DNA from: Octopus vulgaris
Lineage: Eukaryota
DNA: 64,000 bases
Direction of reading: 5' to 3'
NCBI GenBank assembly: GCA_951406725.2
Contig: OX597823.1
Span: 110,608,001 to 110,672,000 of the forward strand
Positions within the stretch are counted from its first letter, which is position 1, and each line of letters begins with the position of its first letter. The notes beneath the pieces are model-generated. The model made no database searches. It saw only the letters and a list, made by a program, of their open reading frames with translations, and had not been told where the DNA came from. Made by a program: the position numbers and the translations under genes. Positions 57,126 through 62,258 of this stretch are shown piece by piece.

Positions 57126-57870
57126 TTATTGAATGAGAGAGCAGTGCATGCCATAAGAAGTCCCCAAAGTCCATCCCCTCCTCACTGTGGTGGGGACGCT
57201 GGCAACGGGTAGTGTCAGAGCTATGCCGTCGGGAACTTCGGTTCCTGGTAGGGCCACCCAAGGCGGATTGGTCTGACATCGAGTGGTATTAGGGCCACAA
57301 CCCGGCAGATGGGGCTCTGGTGAAAATCCTCGGAGAGTCTGTTTTGGCAACCGGCAGCTCCTCGGTCATTCTGTCCCTGCATCTGCAGACAAACAGGATA
57401 TCTCTACATGCAGTATTGTTGGGGACCGCTTGTGAAATCCACATATTCCCACGAAACTTCTTCCATGAATTCTCAATGGCGAGTACAATGGCATCATCGG
57501 CCTGCACCGATGGAACCATGACTGGCTTGCTATCTCCAGTGAACAGGCGCAGGACCATCGTGTTTGGGCTGCCATGGTTCGAGATGCCTCGAGGGTGGTA
57601 GAAGAAGCCGACTCAACCCACCCAGGGTGAATGTCACCACAAGTACAAGTAAGTATGCCATCAAAATGACACTGGGGTAAAATATACGAAGCCCAGTATA
57701 CCCATCATGACTACCCATCTGATAAGGGTACACTAGGCACATGCATCTCAACCATATGTGCACGACATGGTGATCTCATATCAAGATAAACAGTGCATGA
57801 CCTTGCAGGTGGGGCCCAGTTAGAATTTCTTTCAGGTCGAGTAGCCCATCCCACTCAAAAGGTCCCTGAA
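57126..57870 (-). mobile_element. (TAA)n-tailed SINE-like repeat split by a 500-bp insertion
   Basis: 57126-57154 continues at 57662 after the insertion; (TAT)n abuts the left end. Confidence 0.55.
57155..57654 (+). mobile_element. Bipartite RTE-derived non-autonomous element with 7-bp TSD
   Basis: TSD ATGCCAT at 57148-57154 and 57655-57661. The 5' part carries an RTE/BovB-like 5'UTR motif (gagctatgccg...agggccacccaaggcgga). The 3' part encodes an RTE-like C-terminus 'AQDHRVWAAMVRDA...STHPG*' with a (CAAGTA)-type tail. Confidence 0.7.
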
Positions 57871-57892
57871 AAGTCCCCATCCCTCAAAAGGT

Positions 57893-59060
57893 CATGGTTC
57901 AGGATACATATCGACTACGCTGGACCAGAAAACAACCCCTACTACGTAATCATTGTGGTTAGCTATACAAAGTGGCCAGAGGTATGCAGATGTAATAAAC
58001 TCACAGCAAAGGCAATAATAAAGTTCCTCCTCGAGTTATTTGCTCGATGCTGTGTTCCAGACATCTTAGTTTCAGATAATGGAATGCAATTCACGGGATA
58101 TGAATTACTCTTTTACTCTTTTACTCTTTTACTTTTTTCAGTCATTTGACTGCGGCCATGCTGGAGCACCGCCTTAAAAATTGAGCAACTCGACCCCGGG
58201 ACTTATTCTTTGTAAGCCCAGTACTTATTCTATCGGTCTCTTTTGCCGAACCGCTAAGTGACGGGGACATAAACACACCAGCATCGGTTGTCAAGCAATG
58301 CTAGGGGGACAAACACAGACACACAAACAAATGCACAAACATATATATATATACATATATACGATGGGCTTCTTTCAGTTTCTGTCTACCAAATCCACTC
58401 ACAAGGCTTTGGTCGGCTCGAGGCTATAGTAGAAGACACTTGCCCAAGGTGCCATGCAGTGTGACTGAACCCGGAACCATGTGGTTGGTAAGCAAGCTAC
58501 TTACCACACAGCCACTGCAAAATACATGCCATAAAACACATCTTTATCTCAAGGTCAAATGGGCAGCCAGAAAGATTTGTCAACATGTTTAAAAGACCTC
58601 TAAGTAAAGCTAAGAATGAGCTAGATAATGACGAGACACCAACGAAACTTTTGAGAGTATATAGAATAACGCCAAATCCAAATACTAATTCAGGAAAATC
58701 ACCAGCAGGTTTAATGTTCGCGTGTGAAATAAAATCGATTTTTGATCAATTATTGCCAGGAAAAGATACATATAAACGGAAGACAAAAAAATGCATTTGA
58801 AGGAATTACAAAAAATATTACAAAACATTTCTAAATAGGAGATAAATTTCACTTTAAAAATTAGAAAAATGGCAAAGAAGGTCGGGAGGATGGCTAGGGA
58901 ATTAAAAGATTATGTAACATGATGTATTTAATTAAAGGACAACGTTCGGAACATAAGAGACACCTTAACCAGTTAAAGATGAGATATACAGAAGAATGAA
59001 GGATAATACCAATGGAAATCTTCTATGATATGTTTGAAGTGCCTGCACCAAGAGATATCA
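57893..59060 (+). mobile_element. Ty3/gypsy LTR-retrotransposon integrase remnant, interrupted by SINE A
   Basis: 'WFRIHIDYAGP...IVVSYTKWPEV...LFARCCVPDILVSDNGMQFT' before the SINE and 'SNGQPERFVNMFKR...YRITPNP..GKSPAGLMF' after it (DDE integrase pattern). Confidence 0.9.
58105..58516 (-). mobile_element. SINE family A nested in the gypsy integrase
   Basis: Reverse-complement copy. Confidence 0.9.
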
Positions 59061-59974: not shown

Positions 59975-60564
59975 TAGAATGTAGCATGTAACATGCTGGC
60001 TCAGAAAGAATACAAGAAAAGACATGAGAACCTAGGGAGAATAATAGAGTTAGCAACTATAGACTAATCACTTGCTTACCATAAGTGTGGAAGCTGTTAA
60101 CAGGAATGCTTTCAGAAAGCATAACCAGAATTTACTGCCAGAAGAACCGAAGGGTTGCAGGAAGCAGCAGTTCTAAATGAAGTAAAAGCTAGAAAGAGAA
60201 TCTAACAATAGCATGGAAAGATTATAGGAAATCCTATGACATGATCCAACACTCATGGATAAGTGAATGTTTGAGTATATTCAGTACAGCAGACAACATA
60301 AGAGAATTATTTGGCCTGAGCATGAAGAAATGGAAAGTAGATCTCTATACAGGTGACACACTCTTAGAGAAAGGTAATATCAAAAGAGGAATTTTCCAAG
60401 GGGACTCATTATCCCCTTTCATATTTGTCTTATGTTTGATACTCCTCAGTTTAGTATTAAGGAAGGCAAAGGCAGGGGGTCAGTTCAGAAATAGTAAGGG
60501 AAAAATTAACCATTTGCTCTACATGGATGATCTGAAGCTTTTTAGTGAGAATGAAAAAGAAATA

Positions 60565-60859
60565 ACGTAAAGTTTACTAGCCATCTCAATATGGCTAACC
60601 ACTAAGGGTGGGTGTTACTGTAGCTTTTAGCCCCAGGAGATCATCGTCTCCAGCTGGCTTTAGGCACACTATCTGTGCCCTTATGGTATTTGCAAAGGGA
60701 GGTCATCCCTCTCTCATAAACCTAAGTGATACGCACAGACTGCAGTTTCTAGGTATTTGCCTGTCTTCAGCGTACGGCAGTCACCGGTTTACGAGGCTAG
60801 TATACTTTACTTTGTCGAGCAGTTACTGTTTACATCTCGTTCAGAGATTTATTATTGCT
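60565..60859 (-). mobile_element. 295-bp non-coding HHR-bearing insertion (retrozyme-like) with 13-bp TSD
   Basis: TSD TGAAAAAGAAATA at 60552-60564 and 60860-60872. Removing the insert restores the RT frame (…KLFSENEKEIDSLIQT…). Confidence 0.85.
60732..60776 (-). ncRNA. Type I hammerhead ribozyme
   Basis: CGUACG-CUGAAGA-C AGG CAAAUA CCU A-GAAAC UGCA GUC-UGUGCG; palindromic ACUGCAGU, GUC cleavage triplet. Confidence 0.85.
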
Positions 60860-62258
60860 TGAAAAAGAAATAGATTCCTTAATACAGACTATAAGACTCT
60901 TCATCAAAGATATAGGCATGGATAAGTGTGCAATATTAGTCATGAGAAGGCGACAGGTAGTCAACAGTGAAGGCATACAATTACCAGATGGCCAGACAGT
61001 AAATTCATTGAAAGGAGGAGTGTGTTATAAGTATCTAGGAGTATTAGAATCTGACATGATATGAAAACGACAATTAAGGAGTACCTCAGAAGGGTGAGAA
61101 AGCTAATGGAGTCAAAGCTAAATGGTCCGAATCTAGTGAAGGCAGTTAATTCTCGGGCAGTATCATTACTTCGATACTCAGCAGCTTTTGAATTAGTAAA
61201 GCTAGAGAGAAGAACTAGGAAGGAATTCAATATGAATGGAGGACTCCACCCAAAAGCAGGAGTAGCAACATTATACTTATCTAGAAAAGAGGCAGAAGAA
61301 GGTTGATATCAGTAGAAGACTGCAGGGAGTTAGCTAGAGTAGATATAGACTCCGATGTGGGTAATGGTGAAGAAAGTTTACTAAAAGCTGCTAGAGTCAT
61401 AGCAAGACATAGGGAAACCAAAAGCCCAAATGAAGTTAAAAACCAGAAAAAAAAGCAGGTTATTTGGCTGGCAGGAGAAGGTATTGCATGGTAGATTCCC
61501 AAAGATAGTTGGAGCAAATTGTAGAAGTGTGGCATGGTTATAGTTGCAGAAAGGAAAGCTGAATAGGGAGACAGAAAGTTTGCAAGTAGCTGCATAAGAT
61601 CAAGCATTAAGGAGTAATTAGATAAAAGTCAAGATAGGCAAAAACCAAGTAGATTTCCAGTGTAGGTTATACAAATCAAAGGAAGAAAGCATTACTCATA
61701 CAGTTAGTGAATGTAGTATGCTGGCATAGAAAGGATACAAGAAAAGACATGACAACTTAAGGAGAATAATCCACTGGGAGTTATGTAGAAAGCTAGGATT
61801 TGACCATACTGATAAACGATATGAACATGAACCTACTAAAGTACTAGATAGTACGAAATACATGATATTGTGGGACTTCAACATTCAGACTGGCAGAGAA
61901 GCTAGAAGGCCTGATTTAGTAGTAGATAAAGAGAATAGATAATTGACTTTACAGTCCCATTATAGGAAAATCAATACAAGAGGTATAGAAAAAACAGCAA
62001 AGTACCGGGATCTAACCATTGAATTACAGAGACTATGGAAAATGCAGGTAAAATGTATCCCAGTAGTTATAAGAGCATTGAGAACTATCCCTAAAGATCT
62101 GAAAGGCATAAAACCAAGTTTAGTATAGCTCCAGAAAACAGTGTTATTAGGGACAGATAGGATTCATAGAAGGAGTCTTAGCATCTGAGTTTACTTGTTG
62201 CAGCCTGATGCTAGGATTTTTTCGTTTCCAACATCCTAATCTGTTTTGTGCATATGAA

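Follow-up and report, generated by a model that had tools for sequence, protein, structure and literature searches.

An insert in a decayed retrotransposon

The window, a stretch of 64,000 nt of the Octopus vulgaris genome, contains a decayed non-LTR retrotransposon that is interrupted by an insert of 295 nt. The earlier note had fixed the boundaries of this insert by a 13-bp target-site duplication (TSD) and by restoration of the reading frame of the host reverse transcriptase (RT), and both were borne out. The 13-bp direct repeat is exact (60552-60564 = 60860-60872). On the left, the host RT frame reads ...YMDDLKLFSENEKEI, the piece ending in ...FSENEKEI, and on the right it resumes in frame with DSLIQTIRL.... 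In 13 of 14 other copies of the host family, the insertion site is single and uninterrupted, the 14th copy (L181) not being readable. Given the exact repeat, the host frame and the single site in other host copies, the TSD is real and the insert comprises positions 60565-60859.

The host RT domain is broken just past YMDD, (AAT)n precedes the element, and zinc-knuckle-like and restriction-like endonuclease motifs were read in the translation downstream of the RT. From these motifs rather than an RT tree, the host is a putative member of the R4/Dong clade. Elsewhere in the window (57790-58800), the list of open reading frames includes decayed integrase-like frames, presumably of an LTR retrotransposon.

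As had been claimed, the insert holds no convincing ORF (those that start with ATG reach at most 59 aa, the longest lying antisense to the ribozyme). Tested against the criteria for a SINE, it shows neither a tRNA-derived head, there being no tRNA gene in the insert, nor an A-rich or simple-repeat tail. The description of the insert as a unit-length monomer did not hold. The family to which it belongs has a period of 356 nt, as determined by mapping the insert on a natural copy, and the insert consists of 230 nt of this unit and an inverted 65-nt piece, with 79 nt of the unit absent. The features are as follows, with unit positions (u) numbered from u1, the first base past the predicted hammerhead cut, and with E1 and E2 denoting the two 3' ends described below.

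60193..61980, + strand: host, decayed non-LTR retrotransposon (RVT_1 match, E 1e-10)
60552..60564, + strand: TSD, left copy, 13 bp; exact repeat, site single in uninterrupted host relatives
60565..60794, - strand: main arm, 230 nt, u300 to u174, 5'-truncated, ending at E1; 97% identical to the best copies
60578..60597, - strand: hairpin 4, just upstream of E1; nearly invariant
60636..60651, - strand: hairpin 3; in shifted register in sister families and left out of the covariation count
60663..60679, - strand: hairpin 2; compensatory between sister families at 2 of 6 pairs, where both bases differ
60699..60711, - strand: hairpin 1; in the whole unit predicted to pair with a region upstream of the hammerhead that is absent here
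60732..60776, - strand: type I hammerhead motif; core letters match the consensus, cleavage predicted
60776-60771 with 60737-60732, - strand: hammerhead stem I
60770-60764, - strand: hammerhead core CUGAAGA
60763-60750, - strand: hammerhead stem II and loop, with a C-A mismatch at 10.1-11.1
60749-60738, - strand: GAAA, stem III (palindromic) and GUC; cut predicted to fall between 60738 and 60737
60795..60859, + strand: inverted arm, 65 nt, ending at E2, head to head with the main arm, as mapped onto the unit; last 18 nt before E1 followed by the 47-nt tail (60813-60859)
60860..60872, + strand: TSD, right copy; exact repeat

The window locus is a dead, ordinary, truncated retrozyme copy. With one impaired hammerhead and less than one unit, it can likely yield no circle itself.

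The repeat family and its hammerhead

A search of the source genome (2.8 Gb, about 30 large contigs) with the insert returned 2567 first-look candidates. Among the 40 of the 2567 that were scored, most matched query bases 66-295 in one orientation and 1-65 in the other. Exact matches numbered 963 for a 21-mer near E1 (near u150) and 322 for a 27-nt hammerhead pattern, and a relaxed hammerhead pattern that takes in the sister families gave 1748. Hundreds of copies, tandem dimers and a 10-unit array were recovered, forms for which the earlier note had proposed such a search. The array (L171:1755-5380) has 10 U3-A8 hammerheads in ~10 units of 354-357 nt that differ from each other at 0-6 positions; it terminates at E1 and is a candidate source locus. 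Other tandem forms are a direct dimer and, in a sister family, a trimer. Sister families are 65-85% identical with periods of 353-360 nt; those at L167, L250, L271, L272 and L273 include some with fully canonical cores in multimers.

The tandem unit of 356 nt falls in the 150-450 bp range of retrozymes and carries one type I hammerhead per unit, its GC content (0.44) is below 50%, TSDs (mostly 11-13 bp in the family and 13 bp in the window copy) exceed 4 bp, and the unit lacks a protein-coding region. At least two consecutive hammerhead-bearing units, as required of an active locus, are found elsewhere in the family, the window copy having one hammerhead. As judged by every retrozyme feature that can be tested from sequence, the family is a metazoan non-LTR retrozyme, the class to which the insert had been assigned.

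Non-LTR retrozymes were defined, and Penelope-like elements (PLEs) named as candidate mobilisers, by Cervera and de la Pena 2020 (PMC7229834), with units of 350-390 bp in mussel and 330/350 bp in axolotl. The octopus family resembles the retrozymes described there in its similar-sized non-coding tandem unit with one type I hammerhead each, GC below 50%, large TSDs, self-paired predicted circle and weak palindromic stem III. It differs in that insertion ends with a PLE footprint are mapped here, PLEs having been proposed as candidates there. Circles and cleavage were shown for the PMC7229834 retrozymes, whereas the octopus family is known from its sequence. Assembled contigs of 4 of 22 sequencing runs, which are guessed to be RNA, cover the unit, with strand, ends, level and circularity unreadable in them; the junction of a circular RNA is the same as genomic tandem sequence, so assembled contigs cannot tell the two apart.

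The window hammerhead agrees with the core consensus given by PMC3088659, having C3 U4 G5 A6 N7 G8 A9, G12 A13 A14, A15.1-U16.1 and H17 as well as stem I. Its earlier description as intact goes too far: at the base of stem II, positions 10.1-11.1 are unpaired (C-A) in the window copy and its subfamily and G-C in other subfamilies. No hammerhead match was returned by Rfam for the window insert even at E<=10, nor for two other copies. The axolotl retrozyme offers a precedent, with U-U mismatched at the base of stem II (PMC7229834). In a hand tally of the first 100 of the 322 hammerhead matches, 32 were U3-A8 with a G10.1-C11.1 pair, 29 were U4C with the C-A mismatch, 14 were of the window type, 11 were C3/A8 (sister family) and 14 were other variants. 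That the window U4 arose by CpG decay of the commoner CCG variant was considered and rejected, since the same 100 matches hold 14 CTG and no CCA, and CTG is common to both arms of one insertion.

Folding of the insert gave z = -4.4. The predicted circular fold of an array unit is 61% paired with z -5.4 (40 shuffles), and that of a sister unit has z -3.4. When five variants were folded as monomers, the probability of stem III was close to zero in every one, which fits a hammerhead acting as a dimer. Covariation was scored on 19 hand-picked, related sequences from three families, a set with few independent events and a structure chosen by the authors; this structure was paired in 94.9% of cells, as against 17-41% for slid controls. 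Both sides had changed in 9 of 31 pairs; the 3-8 pair, where C3-G8 is exchanged for U3-A8, is one of these, and stem I contributes 4 of its 6. In all three families, a long helix forms between the 50 nt past the cut and the region before the hammerhead, with 12 of 34 pairs compensatory in this region (RNAalifold, 11 sequences). Such a helix would keep together the two ends of a cleaved monomer so that they can be ligated. All four hairpins that the earlier note had listed were located in the insert, although the first competes with this long-range helix, which covaries across families.

Insertion ends and Penelope-like elements

Ends were mapped at 153 loci, which collapsed to 114 insertions, one segmental duplicate pair and three sister-family copies included. 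As many as 151 of the 170 outer 3' ends lie at two fixed sites ~47 nt apart, 86 at E1 (u166-178) and 65 at E2 (u213-226), with 19 elsewhere, and the two end intervals together make up 27 of 358 nt. The tail between E1 and E2 measures 46-47 nt. When sets were retrieved by the hammerhead pattern alone, leaving the ends unconstrained, 53 of 64 ends were again at E1 or E2. The 5' ends are scattered, with 4 of 179 lying no further than 10 nt around the cut, where about 5 would be expected. Pieces of more than 360 nt, longer than the unit, account for 56 of 179, three being supplied by the array. The hammerhead is internal because reverse transcription likely begins beyond it, ~174 or 221 nt downstream of the cut, and from there proceeds back over the cut site.

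Head-to-head inversions are present in 56 of the 114 insertions. Their arms end at E1 and E2 in 40 cases, at E2 and E2 in one and at E1 and E1 in none, an end being unclassified in the remaining 15. The window copy likewise uses one site per arm (E1+E2), as do the 40 of the 56 so tallied. Both arms carry a hammerhead in 17 inverted insertions. Divergence within and between insertions averaged 2.9, 3.3 and 3.4 differences per 67 nt, values that do not tell templates apart. A TA repeat adjoins 38 of 113 insertions. Outside TA repeats, flanking repeats of at least 7 bp were found at 28 of 36 inverted insertions, where they are mostly 11-13 bp, and at only 12 of 39 single-orientation insertions, with 11 of 225 in shifted controls. 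Among 57 single-orientation insertions, no common upstream sequence was detected apart from two pairs.

Published PLE insertions show 5' truncation, partial tandems and an adjacent inverted copy, with a tail of 30-40 bp often at one end only, a bias for microsatellites and TSDs of 8-10 bp (PMC8557442, PMC3846280). Two internal RT start sites bound the PLE tail, an arrangement called unique to PLEs, and integration involves cutting and extension of both target strands (PMC11167929). The U3-A8 core and action as a dimer via a palindromic stem III are described for PLE hammerheads in PMC4209133. The retrozyme shares with Penelope/Poseidon and Neptune PLEs the two 3' ends with an optional tail, the head-to-head truncated inverted copy, the partial tandems, the AT-rich and microsatellite targets, the TSDs, a hammerhead upstream of the RT starts and the U3-A8 variant. 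Unlike PLEs, it has no ORF, and its tail is 46-47 nt rather than the published 30-40; unlike the minimal PLE hammerhead, it has a 6-bp stem I with an internal loop and a 4-bp stem II; and it has no DNA homology to the PLEs sampled in the same genome. As judged by the mapped ends, E1 and E2 together with the inverted layout are the published PLE footprint, which the earlier note had missed, and the window copy matches published PLE insertions point for point, save for a somewhat longer tail.

An abundant PLE family in the same genome encodes RT and GIY-YIG in intact 781-aa ORFs, 96.5-99.5% identical among six copies. The family inserts at TA targets, carries a U3-A8 hammerhead of its own and has two 3' ends that are separated by 38 nt. 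Loci L091-L096 are young intact copies, with the hammerhead in a long 3' region and insertion in TA repeats. From its CxxC linker rather than from a tree, we presume that this family belongs to the Neptune clade. Its protein is a candidate enzyme, as read from the ORFs, for in vitro work. A further PLE, at L159, retains the remnant of an ORF, with 62% identity to the 781-aa protein, and has the inverted E1+E2 layout seen in the retrozyme. This second family (L159:3396-5650 and L279-L306) has a hammerhead-like motif with C replacing A13, and its 3' end recurs in many short palindromic insertions.

None of about 45 PLE loci showed DNA similarity to the unit, the sample having taken in 30 of the 148 GIY-YIG matches listed and 16 other stretches. 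The likeness between the retrozyme tail and the dominant PLE did not significantly exceed chance (493 of 2000 shuffles). In the retrozyme copies examined, no RT and GIY-YIG ORF between pseudo-LTRs was found. Long-spaced hammerhead pairs were inspected as possible full-length PLEs and rejected, the 10 stretches being local duplications without a PLE ORF. The unit thus appears to be non-autonomous, with PLEs as candidate drivers and no ORF-bearing parent among the loci sampled.

Hybrid junctions and the route of insertion

At one locus, a sister-family hammerhead is joined, right past the GUC, to foreign sequence. The foreign part is the 3' end of the L159-type PLE, an abundant family, and starts right past the predicted cut of that PLE. 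A pattern meant to catch departures at the cut had 15 matches, comprising five hybrid matches at three loci (L311/L312, L316/L317 and L320; at 1.716 Mb of contig C1, 142.466 Mb of C5 and 13.484 Mb of C15 of genome G000), two other foreign joins and eight that continue in the family. Control patterns at +3 and +6, which are crude, gave seven matches and no foreign join. Both arms are hybrid at two of the three hybrid loci, one arm being short of one A at the join, and the variants differ on both sides among the three loci, which suggests separate events. The hybrids come from a sister subfamily ~80% identical to that of the window. At L325:1490-1530, a retrozyme fragment ends exactly at the predicted cut and is followed by the 3' part of an R4-like element, and at L322:1500-1530 one ends likewise and is followed by the apparent start of another retroelement.

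Joining at both predicted cut sites suggests, from the junctions, cleavage in vivo. Template jumping by RT between cut ends would also fit the hybrids, and since position 17 is C in a copy of the PLE end that is not part of a hybrid, a switch at a 3-nt microhomology is possible as their origin. The fuller proposal, in which retrozyme and PLE hammerheads cleave in the germline, cut ends are cross-joined and the PLE inserts the hybrids, with twin priming at two sites, one strand at E1 and the other at E2, is evenly poised between true and false. If true, the hybrids would be fossil proof of hammerhead activity in vivo and of a shared RNA pathway.

The insert is very probably a truncated, two-armed copy of a 356-nt retrozyme, pasted into an old LINE by the RT-endonuclease of a PLE. 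Tandem source loci would be transcribed, and hammerheads, probably as dimers via the palindromic stem III, would cut out monomers, the ends of which would be held by the long helix and ligated to give circles. A PLE protein would then bind the RNA near E1/E2 and nick both strands of an AT-rich target ~13 bp apart. Each nick would prime RT at a different site, E1 or E2, and the resulting pair of 5'-truncated cDNAs would be joined head to head, generating the TSD. For the window copy, the cDNA begun at E1 would have extended over 230 nt, through the hammerhead, and that begun at E2 over 65 nt. The role of a PLE as mobiliser has good support from the insertion anatomy; twin priming, cleavage and circles are inferred. 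A circular template for the window copy is plausible, and an uncleaved tandem transcript would look alike.

An uncleaved template is the most serious competitor to this route, though we hold it the less probable of the two. The family and the PLE mobiliser would be the same, the template would be an uncleaved tandem transcript with no circle, and the hammerhead would be dispensable for spreading. Tandem source loci exist, and the U4C and C10.1-A11.1 subfamilies are abundant and include pieces longer than one unit in 17 of 41 and 4 of 14 cases, respectively, as against 21 of 46 for canonical copies; subfamilies with a weakened core have spread as well as canonical ones, and cleavage may be dispensable for spread. 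Hammerhead mutants of a PLE were without effect on insertion in vitro (PMC11167929), and only one of nine Xenopus dimers was cleaved (bioRxiv 10.64898/2026.07.22.740005). However, U4C lowers and need not abolish hammerhead activity in vivo (PMC3088659), the long helix bridging the cut site has been kept despite near-complete sequence turnover, and five loci end exactly at the predicted cut, compared with none of the seven control matches at +3 or +6. The lack of a pile-up of 5' ends at the cut fits a circle or an uncut precursor alike. PMC11167929 reports no reads ending at the PLE hammerhead cut.

A different objection concerns the inverted arm alone. It might stem from a single cDNA that folded back or primed itself instead of from two priming events, and self-priming is how PMC3846280 interprets the inverted junctions of PLEs. 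In 15 of the 17 two-hammerhead inversions, the core type of the two arms is identical or nearly so, and private variants are common to both arms in several. This origin is nonetheless rather unlikely, given that the arms end at different sites in 40 of 41 classifiable pairs, so that one arm often has sequence absent from the other; in the window, the inverted arm has 47 nt missing from the main arm. The hammerheads of the two arms at L025 and L058 (2 of 17 such pairs) come from different subfamilies, which nested insertions could also explain. We regard it as very improbable that the unit is the pseudo-LTR (pLTR) of an autonomous PLE yet to be found and the insert an ordinary truncated PLE end. 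All insertion features are PLE-like, the copies and PLE families examined are a sample only, and pLTR homology is reported for 21 of 57 Xenopus families (bioRxiv 10.64898/2026.07.22.740005), but long copies wrap back into the unit with no ORF, single-orientation insertions lack shared upstream sequence, and PLE protein matches occur at just 1 of 157 family loci, ~900 nt away from the unit, and at 1 of 30 sister-family loci, as a separate element with its own hammerhead. Finally, the earlier note had taken the insert for a monomer of unit length, formed when a circularly permuted cDNA copied from a circular RNA became integrated. The internal hammerhead, the clean TSD and family members longer than one unit agree with this, but mapping refutes it at this locus, as the insert falls short of one unit and includes an inversion, and the 3' ends in the family are fixed; we hold it to be almost certainly wrong.

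The preferred reading, insertion by PLE machinery, bears on questions stated as open. These are the identity of the mobiliser of animal retrozymes (PMC7761336, PMC7229834, bioRxiv 10.64898/2026.07.22.740005) and, likewise, whether PLE hammerheads cut in vivo. According to PMC7761336, retrozyme repeats carry no motif that reveals the mobilising partner. On the basis of pLTR homology and co-occurrence in vertebrates, a derivation of animal retrozymes from PLEs has been argued (Li, Clavereau, Pollet, bioRxiv 10.64898/2026.07.22.740005). The same partner is concluded here, and monomers, dimers and multimers are mixed in both; the mechanism was left open there, whereas insertion anatomy and hybrid junctions from an invertebrate genome are provided here, with no homologous pLTR found among the PLE loci sampled. 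The kind of retrozyme is already known, and what is new is unusually direct evidence on the mobiliser, in that the family supplies anatomical evidence for PLE machinery and, on the mapped ends, supports the long-suspected partnership. The near-strict E1+E2 rule constrains models of PLE integration, the hybrid junctions at predicted cut sites bear on hammerhead cutting in vivo, and a direct test could draw on material from the same genome, a short RNA as substrate and a PLE whose ORF is intact. Among openly accessible papers, titles and the starts of abstracts yielded nothing on this octopus family or on retrozyme/PLE hybrids, and no paper in that set joined retrozymes with twin priming.

Two further repeats were noted in the course of the searches. 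Motif pairs spaced about 400 nt apart may point to an additional family, whose period would be near 400 nt. A separate non-autonomous family of ~400 nt (18 matches, L219-L236) has a 5' TC start, a 3' hairpin and a CTAG end, and from these features we take it to be Helitron-like. It was rejected as the PLE parent, as it carries a piece of the unit: a captured stretch of ~u110-174 with a likely inverted tail, held between short direct repeats.
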